UHGV virus genome: UHGV-0149281
DNA length: 37,393 bases
Source: a virus
Strand: one strand, 5' to 3'
In this document: positions 335 to 34,450 of the stretch, piece by piece
How the letters are laid out: every line of letters begins with the position of its first letter
Numbering within the stretch: position 1 is the stretch's first letter
Made by a program: the position numbers and the translations under genes
Notes under the pieces: model-generated
Told to the model about the DNA's origin: nothing
Database searches by the model: none
What the model saw: only the letters and a program-made list of their open reading frames with translations

Positions 335-1124
335 TGTCAGCCTCCTGCTGCGGTGCTGCTGGTGCGGCGGCGAGCATTTTCGAGTAGCAATGCACTGTAT
401 TCAGCCAGAACCCAACCACCGATTGTCCAGCACGCAACATATCTTTTGTTGGGTCAATCGGAACAAGTTTCCATCCATCCGGAATCACCGGAGAGTTGCC
501 AGGCTTCACATATCCACTGTGTGCGTCGGCATCGTATTCAAGAATGTCCGGCTCCTCTGACAATTCACCAATCAAATGGCGCATGCGGTCAGATTCGTAG
601 CGAACGCGGTCAGGATACTCGGAACGCTCGATTGTGATGCCTTCCCATGGGTGCTGGCCTTTTCGATGCAGCATTACGGTCCAGTTTGTTTTGCCGTTCG
701 TTTCAGGCATTGATCCGTACCAGACTGTTAGTTCTGGCTTGCCATCGGCACCCTGAAGCATGGCGGCGCGATAGGCGTTCCAGCCAACAGCTTTTCCGTG
801 TTCAAACGCGCTGTCAAAGTCATCATCCATTTCCATCGCAGCGGGCACAGATACCGGCGCTGGCGTGGCAGAGCGATACAGAAGAACATCACCCATCTCT
901 GCTCTGGACGCAGGCCATACGTCTGCATCAGAGCCAGATTTGAGATAATCAAGATTGGACTGGTCGATTACGCACACAGCCTCCGCTTCGAGCGATGCCA
1001 GCGCGATACGCAGGGCAGCCAGCGTATTACTGTCGTCTTCATCCAGGCCGAACGGGATTTCATCGCGGGTGGCTTCCATGTCGGCAATTTTCTGCTGTAG
1101 CCATTGTTTGGTAAGTGTGCTCAT
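327..1124 (-). CDS. hypothetical early-left (pL operon) protein, 265 aa
   Basis: Long ORF, acidic; ATGA overlap with the upstream gene (1121-1124), co-directional with the erf operon. Confidence 0.6.
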   Translation of the reverse strand: MSTLTKQWLQQKIADMEATRDEIPFGLDEDDSNTLAALRIALASLEAEAVCVIDQSNLDYLKSGSDADVWPASRAEMGDVLLYRSATPAPVSVPAAMEMDDDFDSAFEHGKAVGWNAYRAAMLQGADGKPELTVWYGSMPETNGKTNWTVMLHRKGQHPWEGITIERSEYPDRVRYESDRMRHLIGELSEEPDILEYDADAHSGYVKPGNSPVIPDGWKLVPIDPTKDMLRAGQSVVGFWLNTVHCYSKMLAAAPAAPQQEADNG

Positions 1125-1910
1125 GATGCCTCTCCTTTACCGGCTGCGGCGCGGTCGATTCGTTCAATTTCGGCCAGAATAAGTGCGCCAGCTTTCACAA
1201 GGTCACGACGCGGATTTGTCGGCTTCCACCATTCTGGTGTCCACGGCCAGCCAAATGGAATGCGGTTAAATGGATGGATGGCATTCAGTACGTAGCATGA
1301 GGATGCCCACAGTAACTGCGATTTGCTGTACTGGTCATCATGCTCAGGCGTCCATCCCTCAGCTGATTGATGGCGTTGACGCTCTGCAATTACTGACTGA
1401 ACGGCATTGGATAGCGATTTCACACCCTGCGCACGCACTTCAGCCAGGAAAGCGTCGGTGGCTGGGGTTTTGTTATCTGACTCCAGCCACTGGTTGTAGT
1501 AATAATCGAACATGCCAGTAGGATAACCACATCCGCCGTGCACGTGGTCTTTCATAGCAGAACCACACATGCAGTAGTCATTGTCAGTATTACTAATGAT
1601 GTCGATAAGTTGCTGTGTCCGTTGCTTCAACATCGCATTCTCCGCCGCCAGCGCCGAAAACTTCTCGTGTGCCAACTTAACAGCTGCATCAGCCTGCTTA
1701 ATTGACTCAGTCGCTTTCTGGTGGTCTTCGGCCAGCCCTGCTAAATCAGCCTCCAGTTCGGCTAGGCGTTCATTTAATGCATCTCGTTCATCCAGTAGAG
1801 CCAGCACAACCTGAGGTGTGACTTTCATACGAAATGCCAGCAATTTTTGAGGTGTTGCTACTGTTTCAATTGCTACTGCTGCCTCACGCAGTACCTGATA
1901 GTCAATCTTG
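1121..1910 (-). CDS. hypothetical protein with N-terminal coiled coil and Cys/His-rich C-terminal region
   Basis: ORF open from 1936; likely GTG start at 1910 preceded by AAGGAGG; heptad-like N-terminal region; CMCGS..HVHGGCG motif. Confidence 0.55.
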
Positions 1911-1911
1911 C

Positions 1912-2112
1912 TCACTGGTTGCCTCCTTTGCGCCACATCGCATTCAGATATTTGTTGTCATTAACAGAACCGAAACTCTTTCTCTTAAGCAATTCCTCTC
2001 TCGATGGCATTGGCTTTACGCGTTGGCGAATAATCATTTCTGCCGGAAGAATGCCGGGATTGTATGCAAGTCCTCTCATGGTAAATTCCTCAGTCATTAC
2101 TGATAGCGCCAT
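1912..2112 (-). CDS. small hypothetical protein (66 aa)
   Basis: ORF overlapping the 3' end of the upstream gene by 23 nt; no strong RBS seen. Confidence 0.3.
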
Positions 2113-2386
2113 AGCGTGAGCGGTAATTACGCAGGCGCGGGTCGATATATTCAGGGAATTTGTCTATTGTCGCTTTTCGCAACGGTCGCATTGCTGTTTC
2201 GTTTGTTCGGTCCCTCTCATCTTTTAACGCGAGCTGTATATCGCGTCGGTACATCCGTTCTGCTTTTGTTTCTGGTGGCAGAGCAAGAAACGCGTCGAAA
2301 ATGTTTTTGATATTTTCCAGCACCTCCGACTTGGAGCTACCGGAGCAGTTGCGCGCGTCGTCCGCACCATACAGAGGCGCTGGCAT
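2090..2386 (-). CDS. small early protein, possible Abc2-like anti-RecBCD protein
   Basis: 98-aa ORF immediately distal to erf in the pL operon, the size and position of P22 abc2; assignment is by synteny, not sequence. Confidence 0.55.
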
Positions 2387-2409
2387 AATGGAATCCTTAT
2401 GTTGCTACT

Positions 2410-2793
2410 TTAGAAGGGAATTGAATCGTCGTATTCAGGATGATTTTGATGATTGCTACTTTGCTGCTGTTGGCTGTTTCCTGAGGTTGCAAATCCAATC
2501 TTTGCATTCAGTAATTCAAGAGTGATTGATTGACCATTTTGCCCCTGATAAACATCAACCCTGATGTTTTCTCCGGTAATTTCTACAATGCCACCTTCAA
2601 CAAGAACACTACGGTAGTAATCCGCTTGCGCTCCCGGCTTGGCAAATACAACGGCGCTGTAGTTTGTCCATTCTTTCTTTTTTGTCTGGCGATCGTAATA
2701 CTGAACGCCAGCACGGATGTTGAATCCGATATTTTCCCCGGCCTGAAACTCTCTTGCGGGCTTGTTTAGTCTTACAGTAATCGAATGTGCCAT
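2410..2793 (-). CDS. SSB-like protein with acidic C-terminal tail
   Basis: Start ATG at 2793 overlaps the erf stop (TAATG); C-terminus ...HPEYDDSIPF resembles the SSB DDDIPF tail; preceded by a Gln/Ser-rich linker. Confidence 0.65.
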   Translation of the reverse strand: MAHSITVRLNKPAREFQAGENIGFNIRAGVQYYDRQTKKKEWTNYSAVVFAKPGAQADYYRSVLVEGGIVEITGENIRVDVYQGQNGQSITLELLNAKIGFATSGNSQQQQSSNHQNHPEYDDSIPF

Positions 2794-3398
2794 TAAGCAG
2801 CCGCTCCTTCTAATTCGTCTCGTCTGATGTTGTAAACGTCCTGCGCTTTGTGCTGCTCCGGTGTGCCTTCGAGCATCTTCCACGCTTTGGCGAACGCCTG
2901 TTTAAGCTCTTCTACGGTGTTTTTCTGCATTGCTGCGTCAGTGAATGCTTTTAGAACCTGTTCAGGTGTAGGTGATGGTTTTGATTGCTTTGCTGCTGCG
3001 TTCTGCTGATGTTTATGCTCGTCTGTATCTGCATCTTTCGCATCATCAATGCCGAACAAACCATTGAGGCAATACTTGCGCGCATAAGAACTTGTAGCTC
3101 CAGTAACTTGTGCAGAATCCATTCCTTTCTTGCTTTCTTCCTCTCGTGCAAGAGCGGTTGCCGTATGACTGTTTTCGCCATCGGTAATAGTTGCCGTAGC
3201 TTTCACGTAATACCGATCACCAATCAACACAACTTCATCGCTGATTGATAAAAACAGGCCATTCAGTAACGGCTTAACGCCTTCAAGAATGTCTTCGCAG
3301 CTTCTGTATTTATATTTGCCGAATGAGTTGTACTGATTCTTTGGCGCGTTCAGATTCTCCTGAATAGCTGCCAGTCTTGCGTAAAATTCTTTGCTCAT
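2793..3398 (-). CDS. erf: Erf-family single-strand annealing recombinase
   Basis: MSKEFYARLA...NAPKNQYNSFGKYKYRSCEDILEGVKPLL matches remembered P22 Erf nearly residue for residue over the N-terminal domain. Confidence 0.9.
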   Translation of the reverse strand: MSKEFYARLAAIQENLNAPKNQYNSFGKYKYRSCEDILEGVKPLLNGLFLSISDEVVLIGDRYYVKATATITDGENSHTATALAREEESKKGMDSAQVTGATSSYARKYCLNGLFGIDDAKDADTDEHKHQQNAAAKQSKPSPTPEQVLKAFTDAAMQKNTVEELKQAFAKAWKMLEGTPEQHKAQDVYNIRRDELEGAAA

Positions 3399-3499
3399 AT
3401 GATTGTTCTCAGAATGGACACGGCCCAAGGAAATAACGCTGATTTAATACTTCGACTCGTGACAAATTAAGGCATACCCGCATTCCTTCGCGGTCGCCA

Positions 3500-3658
3500 T
3501 TATGGCGATACCAGAGAGCTTTCTGCGTGTACATGCGTCTCTGTAACTTGCTCTCCTTCACTGTGGTTGCAAGTGACATGAATATCTCCTTCGTTACCGA
3601 TTAAATCTTTCATCTGACGAATGAATTCTTCGTCTGACCAGTTATCTGTAAAACTCAT
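3500..3658 (-). CDS. small early protein (kil/arf position)
   Basis: 52-aa ORF from ATG 3658, overlapping the cIII stop by ATGA; position between cIII and erf. Confidence 0.4.
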   Translation of the reverse strand: MSFTDNWSDEEFIRQMKDLIGNEGDIHVTCNHSEGEQVTETHVHAESSLVSP

Positions 3659-3825
3659 GGGCGGCCTTGTTGTTTCAAAATATCCCAAAGCTTTTCGAGC
3701 AAGCTTTTCATTCTTGGTTGTTTAAAGTCTGCTCCGGTTAAAATATTTTTTCGTGAATGCTGTACCGATAAAATCGGGTTGAAAGGGCGAACCGATGCCG
3801 CCCCTGCAATAGCGAACTGTTGCAT
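3655..3825 (-). CDS. cIII: cIII-like protein (protease inhibitor that stabilises cII)
   Basis: 56 aa; MQQFAIAG...SLLEKLWDILKQQGRP parallels lambda CIII (MQYAIAG...); RBS AGGAG 6 nt upstream of the ATG. Confidence 0.8.
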   Translation of the reverse strand: MQQFAIAGAASVRPFNPILSVQHSRKNILTGADFKQPRMKSLLEKLWDILKQQGRP

Positions 3826-3888
3826 AGGATGCTCCTTCTGTTTTATTGCATAACGAAAACGCCTCGAATGAAGCGTTATTGGTATGCA

Positions 3889-3916
3889 TATAAAAAGGCC
3901 CTCACACTGGAGGGCA
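3889..3916 (-). terminator. rho-independent terminator within the pL operon (tL1-like)
   Basis: Minus-strand RNA GCCCUC-CAGUGU-GAGGGC followed by a U-run. Confidence 0.55.
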
Positions 3917-4010
3917 AAGAAGATTTCCAATAATCAGAACAAGTCGGCTCCTGTTTAGTTACGAGCGACATTGCTCCGTGTATTCACTCGTTGGAATGAA
4001 TACACAGTGC

Positions 4011-4199
4011 TTATTCGTCATGCATTTCAGGTAATTCTTCGTATTCGACGCCCCATACGAGTTTACACCAACTAACTCGCTCATATCTTTTACAGAAATC
4101 AGACCACATAACTTGTGTTCCATCATGGTTTGTTATTACTTCTGTAATATCACCAACACTAACAAAACTGGTATTAGAAGCGGTTATTTTTACTTTCAT
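4011..4199 (-). CDS. hypothetical small protein (62 aa), AT-rich
   Basis: ORF with TAATG overlap to the upstream gene; low GC. Confidence 0.5.
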   Translation of the reverse strand: MKVKITASNTSFVSVGDITEVITNHDGTQVMWSDFCKRYERVSWCKLVWGVEYEELPEMHDE

Positions 4200-4495
4200 T
4201 ACTTATCCCCAAGAGCTTTTCTTATTGCTGCGAGACCTTTATTAACAGCTCCATACCATTCTGGATATGTTGTCGTTGTTCTATTTTTGGTTTGCTTAAG
4301 TAATAACTGAAGTGCTTCGAGAAGGTCAGGTGCTGCCGCTATTAGATTGGCATCTTCAATGCATTGAACTTCCTCACAGATTGCAATATACGAACGCCAG
4401 CCTGCGCCATTTTCAAGTGAGTCTGCCTGGATGATTTTAATCTCATCCCCATCCATCATTATTTCCCACTTACCTTCAGTACCTTTAAATTCCAT
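4199..4495 (-). CDS. hypothetical protein (98 aa) with LIAAAPDLLEAL motif
   Basis: ORF in the pL operon; the motif is recurrent in enterobacterial prophage early proteins as I remember them. Confidence 0.55.
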   Translation of the reverse strand: MEFKGTEGKWEIMMDGDEIKIIQADSLENGAGWRSYIAICEEVQCIEDANLIAAAPDLLEALQLLLKQTKNRTTTTYPEWYGAVNKGLAAIRKALGDK

Positions 4496-4541
4496 GTTAG
4501 CCTCTGTTGTTTATGCCAAAAATAAAGGCCGACTATGCGGC

Positions 4542-5012
4542 CTAGTAGAATACCCAATTTTCTGTTTCTTGGTTGTGTCCAAAGTTATATTCAATATCTG
4601 GTGTTGATGTATCAATATTCTTCATCCCATCAACAAGAGTTGATACAACAGCCAAATCTTGTTTGATTCTCATTAAATGGTATTTCTTCCGGCGCAATAA
4701 ACTTTCAATGGCAAGTTTCTTCGTTGGGAATGCAAAAGATCTTTCTGCATTTTTTGCTACTTTCTTAATTGCATATCTATTTCTCTTTTGTTTCCATTCC
4801 TGTAACCACTGATTTGGTGCTGGTTTAAAATTAACAATCCAATGCGCAGGAACCAACCATGCATAATGCTCTGTCTGATGAAAAGCTATATATTGAAGTG
4901 CGAATATTTTGATTCCATCTTCTTCAACTGTCGCCTGGAATCTCCAGAAAACAGGCATTCCATCATGTTCAGTTTCTGATTCAGGAAAAGGTACGCTCCA
5001 TGATTTTGTCAT
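4542..5012 (-). CDS. hypothetical protein (156 aa), AT-rich, directly downstream of N
   Basis: ORF in markedly AT-rich DNA; sits where lambda/P22 carry ral/sieB/gene 17; no recognisable motif. Confidence 0.55.
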   Translation of the reverse strand: MTKSWSVPFPESETEHDGMPVFWRFQATVEEDGIKIFALQYIAFHQTEHYAWLVPAHWIVNFKPAPNQWLQEWKQKRNRYAIKKVAKNAERSFAFPTKKLAIESLLRRKKYHLMRIKQDLAVVSTLVDGMKNIDTSTPDIEYNFGHNQETENWVFY

Positions 5013-6074: not shown

Positions 6075-6791
6075 TCAAACCAGCCTTAGTTTTGTCTCAA
6101 TTGCAACGCCTATAATCTTGCAGTTTCCATTGATTGGCACGAGAGGCCATGCAGGATTAAGTCCCTTGAGGTATTTATTTCCGCCGTCGATTATCAGCTT
6201 CTTGAATGTTGCTTCGTTAGAGTCAGAAAGTTTTGCTATGACCAAGCTGCCGTTGATCGCCTCCCTTCCGGTATCGAAAAGAACGAATGTTCCCTCTGGA
6301 ATGCTTAACCCAACCGGTGCCGTCATTGAATCACCTTCCACTTTAAGCCAGAACGCATTACCTTGAATATGCGCGTCAGACTCAAGCCAAACATCTATGT
6401 CTTTAATGGTGTATGGTTCGCATGCTTCACACCACGAGCCAGCCTGGATACTGCTTAACACCGGATACCTCTTTCCTGCTCTGTATTCCCCTGCATACCT
6501 TACGTTGGCATCGCTCTTAAGGCTTTCTGCCTGTTCTGCAACCTTGGCAGCAATTGACTGGCTAAAATCAGCAATTGAGACTTGCAACAAACGTGCAAAA
6601 CCAGATGCGACCTCAACGTTTAGCGCGTTTCTGCCATTAAGATAATGCCCTACCGCTCCTTGGGTGATACCCAGTTCATCAGCGATTGAGTATTGGGTTA
6701 TTCCCAATTCTTTCTTTTTTGACTCATACAAAGCCTTAAGCCGCTTAGCGTCTTCGAGCTGTTCTGTCGTCAGTGATTTTTTATTTTCCAT
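6075..6791 (-). CDS. cI: CI-type prophage repressor (HTH + LexA/S24 peptidase-like domain)
   Basis: 238 aa; N-terminal HTH (QYSIADELGITQGAVGHYLNG); C-terminal domain has the S24 Ser/Lys-type motifs (GDSM...K); divergent from cro. Confidence 0.9.
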   Translation of the reverse strand: MENKKSLTTEQLEDAKRLKALYESKKKELGITQYSIADELGITQGAVGHYLNGRNALNVEVASGFARLLQVSIADFSQSIAAKVAEQAESLKSDANVRYAGEYRAGKRYPVLSSIQAGSWCEACEPYTIKDIDVWLESDAHIQGNAFWLKVEGDSMTAPVGLSIPEGTFVLFDTGREAINGSLVIAKLSDSNEATFKKLIIDGGNKYLKGLNPAWPLVPINGNCKIIGVAIETKLRLV

Positions 6792-6866: not shown

Positions 6867-6897
6867 CTTTGTTCATGGTTAATAACGGAGAGTGCAT

Positions 6898-7092
6898 ATG
6901 ATTCGAATGACACTTGCCGATTACGCCAAAATCCATGGACAGGCTAAAGCAGCCAGTGACTTTGGTGTAATCCAGTGCGCTATCAGTAAGGCCATTCTGG
7001 CAGGCCGTAACATTATGGTTACGGTAAAGCCTGATGGCAGTGTGATTGGAGAGGAAGTTCGTCCTTTCCCAAGCAACAAGAAAAACAAATAG
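6898..7092 (+). CDS. cro: Cro repressor
   Basis: [34 protein letters not shown]....[16 protein letters not shown] parallels lambda Cro; GGAG RBS. Confidence 0.9.
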
Positions 7093-7200: not shown

Positions 7201-7479
7201 ATGCAACTTACAAGTACTCGCAAGAAAGCGAATGCAATTACAAGCAACATCCTGAATCGAATTGCTGTACGTGGTCAGCGAAAGGTTGCCGACGCGTTAG
7301 GGATTAATGAATCGCAAATTTCGCGATGGAAAGACAGCTTTATCCCAAAGATGGCCATGCTTCTGGCTGTTCTTGAATGGGGAGTTGTTGATGATGAGAT
7401 GGCGAGACTTGCTCAGCAGGTGGCATCGATTCTCACAAAAGAAAAACGCCCAGCTGTTGGTAGCAGTCTGGACGCTTAA
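7201..7479 (+). CDS. cII: cII transcriptional activator
   Basis: ...SQISRWK..FIPKMAMLLAVLEWGVVDDEMARLAQQVASILT matches lambda CII closely. Confidence 0.9.
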   Translation: MQLTSTRKKANAITSNILNRIAVRGQRKVADALGINESQISRWKDSFIPKMAMLLAVLEWGVVDDEMARLAQQVASILTKEKRPAVGSSLDA

Positions 7480-7513
7480 GCACACTGTGTTACGCCAAGT
7501 AACAGGAGTAATT

Positions 7514-7918
7514 ATGCCAGGACAAACCAAGCAAGTAAACACCGGCATAAAGGCCGGTGACAAGTTCGAAACCGTATATCCATTTATCTTCGTATGCACA
7601 GATTATCAGTCTTATGACGGCAACGTGCATACCGATGAGCGCTGGATTGGCGGTTGTCACAAAAATTATGAGCCAGCCGATTGTGGTTATGGTGATCAGT
7701 GTTTTTACACCGCTGATGCTGAAGGAAAGAGAATTCTTGAGGTTCTGGCAGTGGTGGAAATGCCAGGCAACTGGCAGCGCAGAATCATTTATTCGTGCCA
7801 CCTCATAGAGCCTGAAGGCAAGGAGAGGAAAGGAAGGAAGGCTTACACAGTCACCGAATCAAGGTTTTTAAAAATGTCTACTGGTTACTTCGCTGATTAC
7901 GAAGTAGAGGAGGCTTAA
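7514..7918 (+). CDS. hypothetical Cys-containing protein (134 aa) inserted between cII and O
   Basis: ATG 7514 with AGGAG RBS; in frame with a longer ORF overlapping cII that was rejected; no recognisable motif. Confidence 0.6.
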
Positions 7919-8064
7919 TGACAAAACCACTCAGTCCTTACCAGGACAAAATTCACAAACACATACTACGTGATCGCTTCCTGTCCAGCTTCAAGCAGCC
8001 TGGTCGATTCCGGGCTGAGTTGGAAAAAGTGAAGCTGATGCAGAAGGAGAAAGGTCATGAGTAA
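7918..8064 (+). CDS. small basic hypothetical protein (48 aa)
   Basis: ATG overlaps the upstream stop (TAATG) with GGAGG RBS; its stop overlaps the O start. Confidence 0.4.
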
Positions 8065-8917
8065 TCTTGCAACCGTAACACATTTAAGGCCTTCACAACG
8101 GCCTGTGGAGCGTCGTGTGGCAGAAGTTGAAGATGGTTATACCCGTCTTGCAAATGCCCTGTATGAAGAGCTTATCGGCGCAGATTTAACGAAAAATCAG
8201 AGCAAGGTTGCCCACGCCATATGCCGTAAAACATACGGCTACGGTAAAAAGATGGATCGCATCTCTGATAGTCAGTTAGCTCAAATTACCAGGCTGCCAA
8301 GACAGAAGGTAAACAAGGCCAAGAATGAGCTTATCGCGATGAAGGTTATCCTTCGCGAAGGCCAGCAAATCGGTCCTAACAAGAACATCGAAGAATGGCA
8401 AATCGAAGGGTGTCACTACTCTGGTGATAATGTCACTGCATTGGTGACAAAAAGTGTCACCAAAACGGTGACAGCGCTGTCACCAAAACAGGGACACACA
8501 AAAGAAACTATTACAAAAGAAAAAAGAAATAATAAAAACACTATGTCCGAAAGTGTTCGGACGGAGTGTGAAAAATCACATGACCGTCACGAAGAAACCG
8601 ACAAGGCATTCGAGGAAATATTCTGGTGTGCAGGCATGCGGAAATCCGGGAAGAAAAACGCGGCTTCGGCATTCAGAACACAGTTCAGGGAATGGCGTAA
8701 AACTACAAGGGGTACGGCAAGCGAGTTTGCCACGATGCTGGCAGAAGACATCGCATGCAGGAATGGTAAGCAGTTCGGATTCGACAGGTTGTTACCATCG
8801 AGCTACCTGAACGGTCAACGCTGGAACGACGAGAAGCCAGAAACTATTCAACCACAATCCAAACCATCATCCGCAATCACCGTATCGAAAACTGGCTACG
8901 TGTTTTTCGACAGGTGA
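8057..8917 (+). CDS. O: replication initiator, lambda O-type
   Basis: N-terminal domain ([46 protein letters not shown]) parallels lambda O; iterons lie inside the gene. Confidence 0.85.
8410..8545. repeat. replication origin: four iterons plus AT-rich region inside O
   Basis: Four GTCAC-N6-GGTGA-type repeats at about 20-24 bp spacing (8411-8495), then an A-rich stretch (8496-8545), mirroring lambda ori architecture. Confidence 0.75.
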
Positions 8918-8920
8918 ACC

Positions 8921-9028
8921 ATGAAATCAAAAATCAAATCGCTACTGGTCGCTGGTTATAACCACGGCTGGTTAAGTATTTCGTTTGTCGATTTCTGGTT
9001 TAAAAATCTCAATCTGAGGGAATCATGA
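8921..9028 (+). CDS. small hypothetical ORF (35 aa)
   Basis: Stop overlaps the primase-helicase start (ATGA). Confidence 0.25.
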   Translation: MKSKIKSLLVAGYNHGWLSISFVDFWFKNLNLRES

Positions 9029-10905
9029 GGCCAAGTGAACTCAGCGACCTGCTTTGGGCGCAGGTTGACAGGGTGGCTCCGCACCTGTTGCCAAACGGCA
9101 AGAAAGAGGGGCATGAGTGGGTTGCCGGTAACGTCAACGGTGACAAGGGAAACAGCCTTAAGGTCAATCTTAGCGGCAAGAAAAAATGGGCTGATTTCGC
9201 TGAGGGAGACGGCGGTGACATGCTTGATTTGTGGATGGCATGTCGTGGAATTAACCTGCATCAGGCTATGCAGGAAGCGAAAGCATTTCTCGGTATCAAG
9301 GATGACGATCACCATTTCGATGCCAAACGTGAGAAGAAATTCTCCAGACCTGATCGCAAGAAAATAGCCCGCTACGTTACCAGAACAGAATCCCATCTTG
9401 AGTACCTGCAATCGCGTGGCATATCGCCAGAAGTCGTAAAGCGCTACGAGGTTGTCAGCGGCAAGGTGTGGAATGGAGAACGAGAACTTGATGCACTGGT
9501 GCTTCCGTACAAACGCGATGGTGAGTTGTTGCAGGTCAAGCGAATCAGCACTGAGCGCCCGGACGGGAAGAAAGTCATTATGGCAGAAGGTGATTGTGAA
9601 CCTTGTCTGTTCGGATGGCAGGCTCTGGACGCTGGCGTGAGGGCGGTTGTGCTTTGCGAAGGCGAAATTGATTGTATGAGCTATGCGCAATACGGCATCT
9701 CGGCGTTATCCGTGCCGTTTGGTGGAGGAAAAGGCGCTAAGCAACAGTGGATTGAGTTTGAGTATCACAACCTCGACAGGTTTGAGGAAATATTCATCTC
9801 GATGGACGTTGATGATGTTGGTCGTGAAGCCGCAAGGGAAATCGCAAGCCGACTCGGTGAACATCGTTGCCGTCTTGTTACTCTGCCGTACAAAGACATC
9901 AACGAATGCCTGATGAACGGTGTTACCGAGGATGAAATCTGGCAGTACATCGGCACGGCATCCTACTTCGACCCTGAAGAACTCTACAGCGCGCGAGAGT
10001 TTTACCAGGACACTATCAACGCTTTCTACGGCAAGCAGCAGTATCTGTTTAATCCACCGTGGGAATCTCTGGCATATAAATTCCAGTTCCGTGAGGCAGA
10101 GTTGACGCTGGTCAATGGTGTGAACGGTCACGGAAAAACGGAGGTTGTCGGGCATATGGCACTTGAGGCAATGCGTCAGGGTGTGAAGACGTGCATCGCG
10201 TCACTTGAGCTGAAGCCTGGTATTCTCCTTAAGCGCCTTACCCGTCAGGCGACGTGCTGCAAGATTCCGCCAGTGCTGGAAATTGACTCTGCATTTAAAT
10301 TTTATGACGAAAGACTTTGGGTGTTTGGCCTGACCGGAACGGCGAAAGCCGACAGGCTGATCGAAATATTCGACTACGCTCGCCGCCGATACGGGATCCA
10401 GTTATTCATCATCGACAGCCTGATGAAATGTGGCATAGGCGACGATGACTATAACGGGCAGAAGGCGTTTGTTGACTCGATTTGCGACTTCAAAAACAAA
10501 ACAAACTCCCACGTCATTCTCGTTACTCACTCGCGAAAAGGAGACAGCGAAGAAAAACCAACCGGGAAAATGGACGTAAAAGGCTCTGGAGCGATAACAG
10601 ACCTGACAGACAACCTTTTCATCATCTGGCGTAACAAGGCTCGCGAGAGAGCGTTACAGAGAGTTCAGAGTGGTGAAAAGATGTCAGAGAAGGACGAACA
10701 GCTACTGGCATCTCCGGCATCTGTTTTGATGCTTGAAAAACAACGTAACGGCGAAGGTTGGGAAGGTGGCGTCCCTTTGTTCCTTGACGAGCAATCGCAC
10801 CAGTTCCTGCAACTTGAATCAGGATCGCCTTATAGCTACATCGCCAATATGCCGAAATCGGAATATGACGAGGCGTGGCGACAGGAAAACGTGACGGAGT
10901 ATTAA
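9025..10905 (+). CDS. bifunctional primase-helicase (Toprim + DnaB-like ATPase, T7 gp4-like)
   Basis: Toprim signature VVLCEGEIDCMSY...ISMDVDDVGREAA...LPYKDINECLMNG aligns with T7 gp4; Walker A GVNGHGKT and helicase motifs in the C-terminal half. Confidence 0.85.
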   Translation: MRPSELSDLLWAQVDRVAPHLLPNGKKEGHEWVAGNVNGDKGNSLKVNLSGKKKWADFAEGDGGDMLDLWMACRGINLHQAMQEAKAFLGIKDDDHHFDAKREKKFSRPDRKKIARYVTRTESHLEYLQSRGISPEVVKRYEVVSGKVWNGERELDALVLPYKRDGELLQVKRISTERPDGKKVIMAEGDCEPCLFGWQALDAGVRAVVLCEGEIDCMSYAQYGISALSVPFGGGKGAKQQWIEFEYHNLDRFEEIFISMDVDDVGREAAREIASRLGEHRCRLVTLPYKDINECLMNGVTEDEIWQYIGTASYFDPEELYSAREFYQDTINAFYGKQQYLFNPPWESLAYKFQFREAELTLVNGVNGHGKTEVVGHMALEAMRQGVKTCIASLELKPGILLKRLTRQATCCKIPPVLEIDSAFKFYDERLWVFGLTGTAKADRLIEIFDYARRRYGIQLFIIDSLMKCGIGDDDYNGQKAFVDSICDFKNKTNSHVILVTHSRKGDSEEKPTGKMDVKGSGAITDLTDNLFIIWRNKARERALQRVQSGEKMSEKDEQLLASPASVLMLEKQRNGEGWEGGVPLFLDEQSHQFLQLESGSPYSYIANMPKSEYDEAWRQENVTEY

Positions 10906-10931
10906 ATGACCATCTACATCACTGAGCTAAT

Positions 10932-10962
10932 AACAGGGGCTATTTACACAGTAGCCCTTTTT
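10932..10962 (+). terminator. rho-independent terminator (tR2-like, entry to nin region)
   Basis: GGGCTA...TAGCCC hairpin followed by TTTTTTATT just after the primase-helicase stop. Confidence 0.5.
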
Positions 10963-10990
10963 TATTGGATTAAGAACGAGGGGGATCCTG

Positions 10991-11194
10991 ATGGACACCG
11001 TTAACGGAATGTGTTCAGACGCACCGCGTGCCAAAAAATGTAAATGCGGAAAATCACCGACAATATTCGACATGGAGAGCGGGTGCCAAATCTACTGTGC
11101 TAACCACGCCGCTGTGGCGGCCGCGAATTATCGCAGTGCAGTAACGGAGTGGAATAACCTGAAATCTGTTAGAGAGGGAAGTCATGAATCTTGA
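10991..11194 (+). CDS. small Cys-rich hypothetical protein (possible zinc ribbon)
   Basis: 67 aa with CKCG...C..YCANH cysteine pairs. Confidence 0.5.
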   Translation: MDTVNGMCSDAPRAKKCKCGKSPTIFDMESGCQIYCANHAAVAAANYRSAVTEWNNLKSVREGSHES

Positions 11195-11953: not shown

Positions 11954-12364
11954 ATGAAGCAAACAATCTTCCTCCGAACTAAGCAACAACAGCAAGCCGC
12001 AATAAATGCCATCCTCGCAACACCACTCGATAAAGACAAGCCAATCACCATCCGCATTACTGACTACAAGCGCAACCTTGACCAGAACGCAAAATTTCAC
12101 GCGATGCTGTCGGATATCGCTCATCAGGTTCAATGGTGCGGCAAATGGTTAAAACCGGAACAATGGAAGGTTTTGTTGATCAGCGGTCATGCAGTGGCAA
12201 CAAAGCAGGAAGCTGATGTTTTGCCCGGGCTTGAAGGCGAATACGTCAACATTCGCGAAAGCAGCGCGCAGATGAGTGTGAAGCGTATGGCAAGTCTGAT
12301 TGAGTACACGACAGCCTGGGCTATTGGTCAGGGTGTCAGATTTACCGACAGGAGGTATGAATGA
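11954..12364 (+). CDS. ninB: NinB recombination protein
   Basis: AINAIL...DKPI...I.....R.LDQNAK.HAML.D...QV.W.GKWL..E.WK parallels lambda NinB; AAGGAG RBS. Confidence 0.85.
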
Positions 12365-34379: not shown

Positions 34380-34450
34380 AGTTGAAGCCCCAACTGCGGG
34401 AACAGTCAGGGCTTCGGTATCAACAAATCGGATTAGGAAATATTGACATG
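34380..34450 (-). ncRNA. sar: candidate sar antisense RNA (against the ant RBS)
   Basis: P22 makes a short antisense RNA across the arc-ant junction; the junction is conserved here; boundaries not determined. Confidence 0.35.

Follow-up and report, generated by a model that had tools for sequence, protein, structure and literature searches.

In phage lambda, replication is initiated by the O protein. In the classical picture from lambda genetics, its N-terminus determines which origin is recognized, and its C-terminus makes contact with the partner that delivers the helicase. The O C-terminal domain recruits a complex of P and the host helicase DnaB, and remodeling by DnaK, DnaJ and GrpE then frees DnaB from P. 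Another arrangement was entered in 2005 in the GenBank record of Salmonella phage ES18 (AY736146), from which our reading of that phage is taken. There, gp59 is "similar to phage lambda gpO", a rep_origin is "similar to lambda ori", gp60 has 35 amino acids (aa), and gp61 is a "putative primase/helicase; similar to phage T7 gene 4". Genes 49–53 of phage epsilon34 are the ES18 replication region (PMC2629481), and the hybrid arrangement of O and a primase-helicase has been described in comparative work on the P22-like phages (PMC10307801). Here, we analyze a replication module of this kind in the virus genome UHGV-0149281, a stretch of 37,393 nucleotides (nt) to which we refer, at its full length, as the window. 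Very likely, the module joins an O-family initiator and a lambda-style origin to a T7 gp4-like primase-helicase that stands in for P, DnaB and probably DnaG. Judged by its sequence, the module is already known: it is of the ES18 type, annotated since the ES18 GenBank record, and is an ordinary, widespread lambdoid replication module.

The Module and Its Relatives

Close relatives of the 2849-bp region at the DNA level are Shigella phage Sf101 (98.7% identity), coliphage mEp043 (98.5%) and Salmonella phage SEN22 (91%). The part from ~8484 (the fourth origin repeat, or iteron) onward has 88% identity with the Salmonella phages ES18 and epsilon34, and the part from 8533 onward has 97–98% identity with Stx2 phages, Min27 and 24B among them. 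The synteny of cII, O with an ES18-type C-terminus, a 35-aa open reading frame (ORF), the 626-aa primase-helicase and the nin genes is present in the window, and 298 of 5426 complete E. coli genomes (about 5%) carry the module. It was not placed in a numbered type of the "Eru" classification of Stx-phage replication regions.

The O gene is preceded by a Shine–Dalgarno-like AAGGAG, and its product shares 99–100% identity with O of Sf101 and mEp043. The original prediction, made from the DNA letters without database searches, held the N-terminal domain to be lambda-like. This was borne out by two models that matched well above their curated cut-offs, PF04492 over aa 20–114 (E = 1.1e-37; 128.9 bits against 28.7) and TIGR01610 over aa 23–114 (E = 1.7e-30; 105.4 bits against 45.5), and by 49% identity to lambda O over residues 1–157.

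Four repeats of 19–20 bp each lie within the O gene between the regions that encode the two O domains (Table 1). They had been described as four GTCAC-N6-GGTGA iterons; four repeats are indeed present and three are exact, but the fourth is degenerate, as its core at 8479–8494 (GTCACCAAAACAGGGA) has two mismatches to the pattern on the plus strand and one on the minus strand. The exact pattern occurs three times on the plus strand and once on the minus strand (inside the palindromic iteron 3), all in 8412–8472. These four matches in 61 bp compare with 0.08 matches per whole window in shuffled sequences, and none of 100 shuffles reached four. The fuller consensus is TGTCAC-N7-GTGACA, an inverted repeat as in the lambda iterons, and the start-to-start spacing of 20, 24 and 23 bp is that of the four annotated lambda iterons. 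Directly to the right, and within the O reading frame as had been proposed, is an A+T-rich tract that is nearly identical to the A+T-rich segment of lambda ori and is presumed to be the site of melting. The palindrome that follows occupies the same place as the lambda ori palindrome with another sequence, which is common to ES18 and Min27. By these features, the O protein is predicted to bind the iterons at 8411–8496.

A fifth near-match to the iteron pattern (GTAACGTCAACGGTGA, 9128–9143 on the plus strand, one mismatch) was seen ~630 bp to the right of the origin, in the 5' end of the primase-helicase gene, and may be due to chance.

Table 1. Features of the replication module and its surroundings, in window positions.
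Feature	Position	Strand	Remarks
cI-type repressor	6075–6791	minus	upstream of the O module
Cro	6892–7092		upstream of the O module
CII	7201–7479		upstream of the O module
O-type replication initiator gene, 286 aa	8057–8917	+	start overlaps the end of the DUF2740 ORF (7918–8064)
O N-terminal origin-binding domain, aa 20–114	8114–8398	+	Pfam PF04492 (Phage_rep_O)
Iteron 1	8411–8430	+	TGTCACTACTCTGGTGATAA
Iteron 2	8431–8449	+	TGTCACTGCATTGGTGACA
Iteron 3	8455–8473	+	TGTCACCAAAACGGTGACA; near-perfect palindrome
Iteron 4	8478–8496	+	TGTCACCAAAACAGGGACA; degenerate copy
A+T-rich tract, 41 bp	8497–8537	no strand	83% A+T
O C-terminal domain, ES18 type, aa 157–286	8525–8914	+	phrog_33384, E = 2e-87
Imperfect palindrome	8538–8569	no strand	ACACTATGTCCGAA/TTCGGACGGAGTGT; 14-nt arms; right of the A+T tract
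Last 19 codons of O	8858–8914	+	only initiator part common to Salmonella phage S107
35-aa ORF, ES18 gp60 homologue	8921–9028	+	phrog_21848, E = 4e-26
Bifunctional primase-helicase gene, T7 gp4-like, 626 aa	9025–10905	+	
N-terminal region, aa 29–75	9109–9249	+	aligned with the zinc-finger region of DnaG-type primases, without Cys4
Toprim primase catalytic domain, aa 209–296	9649–9912	+	Toprim_2, E = 3e-12
Toprim motif EGEID	9658–9672	+	T7 gp4 E157
Toprim motif MDVDD	9802–9816	+	T7 gp4 D207/D209
Toprim motif KDINE	within 9889–9906	+	T7 gp4 D237
DnaB-family (superfamily 4) helicase domain, aa 356–594	10090–10806	+	
Walker A, GVNGHGKT	10117–10140	+	T7 gp4 K318
Helicase motif SLE	within 10201–10215	+	T7 gp4 E343
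Walker B, LFIIDS	10402–10419	+	T7 gp4 D424
Helicase motif THSRKG	within 10522–10542	+	THS: T7 gp4 H465
Helicase motif GSGAITDLTD	10582–10611	+	
Helicase motif KQRNG	within 10735–10758	+	
NinB	11954–12364		downstream of the primase-helicase

A Primase-Helicase in the Place of P

The absence of lambda P, noted at the outset, was confirmed: tblastn of the whole window found no homologue of lambda P, of Ren or of the C-terminal part of lambda O (best E between 0.22 and 3, and 2.7 for P and Ren). The complete genome of the close relative Sf101 holds no other replication protein, no loader and no polymerase, and among the window ORFs of at least 180 aa, none is left unaccounted for as a replication gene or polymerase. 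By these searches, the phage is one that has neither P, nor a DnaC-like loader, nor a DNA polymerase gene of its own.

Domain annotation of the 626-aa protein recovered the predicted combination of a Toprim domain and a P-loop, DnaB-like domain. Its best relatives of solved structure are T7 gp4 (E = 2.5e-22 over aa 192–539) and the mitochondrial helicase Twinkle, and the T7-like gp4 proteins of phage genomes are ~25% identical to it over aa 111–538. In Pfam, AAA_25 (aa 356–507) scored just above the cut-off and DnaB_C (aa 497–594) just below it. On closer alignment, Walker A and Walker B are both intact, and they and further motifs of the two domains align with individual residues of T7 gp4 (Table 1). 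Farther upstream, aa 26–143 match positions 27–155 of the TIGR01391 dnaG model (E = 9e-10). These features suggest that the protein has both helicase and primase activity.

The same protein gave weak matches to defense systems in PADLOC (DRT "RTasDnaG-like", E = 3e-10; mad8, E = 4e-5). They come from the generic Toprim and P-loop domains, and we rejected the defense-system reading. In phage phiKp_30 of Klebsiella (L007, positions 782–3688), in Min27 (L003, positions 1995–4577) and in other Stx2 alleles, Walker A carries an insertion of ~342 aa, which we identify as an intein with a homing endonuclease because it contains Hint and LAGLIDADG_3 domains. The insertion point corresponds to ~10137/10138 of the window (GHGK / ACPL...VATHN / TEVV), whose allele lacks the insertion.

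The 35-aa ORF starts 3 nt past the O stop codon, with AGGTGA 5 nt upstream of its ATG, and its TGA overlaps the primase-helicase ATG at 9025 (ATGA). It is annotated in ES18 and epsilon34, and both its frame and its length of 35 aa are kept in ES18, SEN22, epsilon34, Min27, S107 and the divergent Fraca; the phiKp_30 copy stays in frame but stops two codons earlier. Two residues differ from the ES18 copy, and the comparison with epsilon34 gives 8 synonymous and 10 non-synonymous codon changes that spare the LL(V/I)AGYNHGWL core. Is this ORF translationally coupled to the primase-helicase, as the original prediction supposed? In six of seven relatives, the stop codon of the small ORF overlaps the start of the primase-helicase or lies directly against it (in phiKp_30, ~130 bp separate the two), yet the primase-helicase has its own ribosome-binding site, GAGGGA, 5 nt upstream of its ATG. 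Coupling thus seems plausible, though not proven.

Could the module instead be a decayed, non-functional prophage remnant with coincidental repeats? The comparisons refute this explanation, which we regard as scarcely conceivable. All three ORFs are intact, and near-identical copies are present in the plaque-forming phages Sf101, mEp043 and ES18. Between the primase-helicase genes of the window and ES18, we counted 191 synonymous against 36 non-synonymous codon differences, indicating strong purifying selection on the whole gene, its primase half included. Furthermore, the density of exact iterons is far above the shuffled expectation given above.

The O C-Terminal Domain and Its Partners

Beyond aa 157, BLASTP detected no similarity between the O protein of the window and lambda O. 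The two C-termini share no PHROG family (phrog_33384, 270, 9327 and 9474 in the window; phrog_2357, 391, 2514 and 9773 in lambda), as would be expected from the proposal that this domain differs from its lambda counterpart. A search of the PDB with the O sequence returned nothing meaningful (best E = 0.63), which leaves the C-terminal domain without a solved relative by sequence, and Pfam assigned no family to the C-terminus alone at E values up to 1.

The original prediction further took the different C-terminus as a sign of a different partner, and natural domain swaps support this (Table 2). In Escherichia phage PhiR12_2 (L016, positions 3001–4891), O is identical to that of the window over aa 1–157 and then, from the junction, to lambda O; downstream lie a P protein that is 97% identical to lambda P and then Ren. 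Conversely, three different types of N-terminus and iterons are fused to the window-type C-terminus and primase-helicase. In all recombinant types tabulated, the junction lies at the KEKR codons (aa 154–157) in the A+T-rich tract, which is thus both an element of the origin and the recombination junction between the N- and C-terminal modules of O; the window's matches to ES18 and to the Stx2 phages begin at 8484 and 8533, respectively. Among more divergent phages, Fraca has a C-terminal domain of 55% identity, a small ORF and a primase-helicase of 61% identity, all three of which have diverged together behind an unrelated N-terminus, and Vibrio phage 1.172.O pairs a weakly similar O C-terminus with a primase-helicase of 60% identity. 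The natural recombinants thus support the view that the O C-terminus tracks the type of partner, being co-inherited either with P or with the primase-helicase. The swap series agrees with the classical view of lambda O, in which the N-terminus belongs to the origin and the C-terminus to the partner.

Table 2. Combinations of O domains and partners in natural phages.
Phage	N-terminus and iterons	C-terminus	Partner
lambda	lambda type	lambda type	P
PhiR12_2	window type (aa 1–157 identical)	lambda type	P and Ren
ES18, epsilon34	lambda type	window type	35-aa ORF and primase-helicase
Window, Sf101, mEp043, SEN22	window type	window type	35-aa ORF and primase-helicase
Min27-type Stx2 phages	third type	window type	primase-helicase

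In the Min27 record (L003, EU311208; positions 1109–1885 and 4568–4903), the O C-terminus is in another frame than the annotated O, and the last 111 aa of the primase-helicase are called separately as a "putative DNA primase" while the main part is called "P". The breaks appear to be frameshifts or errors of sequencing, and the naming misleads.

A Proposed Mechanism and Its Alternatives

From the parts list, the integrity of the motifs and the co-inheritance of the parts, which were observed directly, we infer the following mechanism. Dimers of O would bind the iterons via their N-terminal domains and distort or destabilize the A+T tract. The O C-terminal domain would then recruit the phage's own hexameric primase-helicase, possibly via the last 19 residues of O or via the 35-aa protein. 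The primase-helicase would self-assemble on the melted DNA, unwind it and make primers, and the host Pol III holoenzyme would carry out DNA synthesis. By analogy with the known systems, initiation would be independent of DnaB and DnaG, as the original prediction implied, and the module would probably also remove the need for remodeling by DnaK, DnaJ and GrpE. In the most complete form of this scheme, origin firing would be self-contained: the O-some would load the primase-helicase without a loader, DnaB, DnaC, DnaG or DnaK/DnaJ/GrpE, docking would occur through the O tail and/or the 35-aa protein, and the template would be recognized without a zinc finger. We consider this complete form possible but rather doubtful.

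Several observations weigh against the proposed mechanism or parts of it. Our literature search found no experiment on the module, including its dependence on DnaB, DnaG or chaperones, and every mechanistic step after the binding of the iterons by O is drawn by analogy. In the helicase domain, KQRNG (within aa 571–578) is the likely arginine finger, but an insertion of ~35 aa precludes its direct alignment to T7 R522, and the assignment comes from the sub-threshold DnaB_C match. In the primase half, no Cys4 zinc motif was found in the first 100 aa, where C73 is the only cysteine and no CxxC pair occurs, and the Fraca homologue likewise lacks the motif. Thus, the Toprim-helicase core of a T7 gp4-type protein is present as predicted, but strict membership of that type fails, and primase activity is not assured.

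T7 gp4 and DnaG both need the Cys4 zinc motif to recognize their templates, and in metazoan Twinkle the motif and the primase activity have both been lost. Could the protein of the window, then, replace only P and DnaB, with an inactive or auxiliary primase part and with the host DnaG making the primers? The missing motif in both the window protein and its Fraca homologue would fit this explanation, as would the precedents of gp4, DnaG and Twinkle. A phage helicase of this kind is P22 gp12, which works with DnaG (Wickner 1984, as cited in PMC8022706). On the other hand, the Toprim acidic motifs (EGEID, DxD and KDxNE) are all kept and align with the catalytic residues of T7 gp4, the strong purifying selection extends over the primase half of the gene, and a match to the dnaG model is retained in the DnaG-like N-terminal region. 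Although it ranks as the main rival to a protein that serves as both helicase and primase, this explanation appears improbable to us.

The further points against the proposed mechanism concern the link between the O C-terminus and the primase-helicase. We had also considered that the C-terminal family might be exclusive to primase-helicase partners, and this failed for distant members: homologues of the C-terminal core (37–44% identity) lie beside a DnaC-like loader in Pseudomonas phage Skulduggery and beside no helicase gene in Vibrio phages PVA1 and D65. These different neighbors allow the explanation that host DnaB fires the origin, recruited by the O C-terminus directly or via DnaC, and that the primase-helicase serves in late rolling-circle replication, restart or counter-defense. 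However, the primase-helicase gene sits exactly where P does, right after O, at least four independent combinations show it swapped jointly with the C-terminus of O, and neither the window nor the Sf101 genome contains a loader gene. Recruitment of host DnaB is thus highly unlikely, and recruitment of the phage's own primase-helicase remains the preferred reading.

Salmonella phage S107 (L013, positions 2183–4881) also weighs against a simple form of this recruitment: there, the same primase-helicase is found behind an initiator whose C-terminal domain is a different one. Its initiator is an unrelated "primosomal protein I" with Pro-rich repeats, followed by the 35-aa ORF and the primase-helicase (94%), with the junction 57 nt within the initiator gene. 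Only the last 19 residues are common to both initiators. This O tail may be a docking element for the primase-helicase. Its DNA, however, is nearly invariant, with one synonymous change over six comparisons, and recent recombination explains the shared tail equally well; selection at the protein level on the 19 residues could not be separated from it.

Setting of the Module

The window is the genome of a P22-like (Lederbergvirus-type) temperate phage or prophage, and the module is its early-right replication module. The terminase, portal, scaffold and coat genes of P22-like coliphages match the right part of the window. A match to the sar antisense RNA of the P22 immI region (34380–34446 on the minus strand; Rfam RF00262, 71.6 bits, gathering score 43) confirms that the window has a second immunity region of the P22 kind.

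A 134-aa ORF (7514–7918 on the plus strand) separates cII from the DUF2740 gene and matches phrog_30464 over its full length (E = 3e-95). Pfam assigns it no family, megablast against the phage collection gave no match, and Sf101 does not carry it; it looks like an inserted accessory gene. The 48-aa DUF2740 ORF (7918–8064 on the plus strand) overlaps the O start by 8 nt, and many lambdoid phages have it conserved ahead of O. Its label in RefSeq and PHROG is "tail protein", which is implausible for a gene at that position.

Just 3' of cII and facing back toward it, a promoter-like site on the minus strand (7511–7559; TTTACT-17-CATAAT preceded by an upstream TG) is reminiscent of the pO/oop arrangement in lambda. 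Just 3' of the primase-helicase stop, a terminator-like hairpin of 10 pairs followed by a T-run (10935–10959 on the plus strand) falls within a 32-aa ORF (10906–11004; phrog_5907) and could, by analogy, correspond to a terminator of the lambda tR2 type where the nin region begins. In the scan for promoters and terminators, the counts were not above those in shuffled sequences. The "terminators" at 8455–8485 and 8545–8562 are the iterons and the ori palindrome. The Rfam scan of the module region found no RNA family.

Significance and Comparison with Known Systems

As a discovery, the module carries little weight, since its annotation is long standing, comparative papers exist and it is found in ~5% of complete E. 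coli genomes. Its interest lies elsewhere. In several records, the primase-helicase is labeled "P", "hypothetical protein" or "coil containing protein", and the 35-aa gene is often uncalled. Compared with lambda-P phages, those with the module should show a different dependence on host DnaB, DnaG and chaperones, which bears on host range, on P-mediated toxicity and on Stx2 phages such as Min27 and 24B, which have the same O C-terminus and primase-helicase. The natural domain-swap series is a ready genetic system for how an O-type initiator picks its helicase. In particular, PhiR12_2 and the window-type phages share the O N-terminus and origin and differ in C-terminus and partner, which would make the self-contained reading directly testable.

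How does the module compare with the systems described to date? The closest is that of ES18 (gp59-gp60-gp61), together with epsilon34 (gp50–52), Sf101, mEp043, SEN22 and g341c, all with the same gene order and an internal origin. The O C-terminus of ES18 is 94.5% identical to that of the window and its primase-helicase ~94%; the difference is that ES18 and epsilon34 have lambda's own N-terminal domain with TCCCTC-type iterons, whereas the iterons of the window are of the TGTCAC-N7-GTGACA type. With the O/P/ori-lambda system, the module shares the O N-terminal family, the four in-gene iterons and their spacing, the A+T tract, the palindrome at the right and the position of the replication genes after cro-cII. 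Unlike lambda, the window lacks P and Ren, its O C-terminus has no detectable similarity to that of lambda, and a phage primase-helicase takes the place of the P-DnaB route.

T7 gp4 (PDB 5ikn, 6n7i and 1q57) and Twinkle resemble the 626-aa protein in the fusion of Toprim, via a linker, to a DnaB-family helicase domain, in the conserved Toprim acidic residues, Walker A and B, catalytic Glu and sensor His, and in an acidic C-terminal tail that ends with an aromatic residue. In contrast to gp4, to which it is ~25% identical, the window protein lacks the Cys4 motif and has ~35 extra residues before KQRNG, and its phage has no polymerase of its own and uses an initiator-dependent, iteron-type origin. 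Finally, gene 18 and gene 12 of P22, a member of the same phage group, likewise consist of an O-type initiator with internal iterons followed by a phage helicase rather than a loader (PMC8022706, PMC10307801). P22 gp12 differs in being a DnaB-like helicase without a primase domain that relies on host DnaG, and the ES18-type protein has been called "nonhomologous" to it (PMC10307801).

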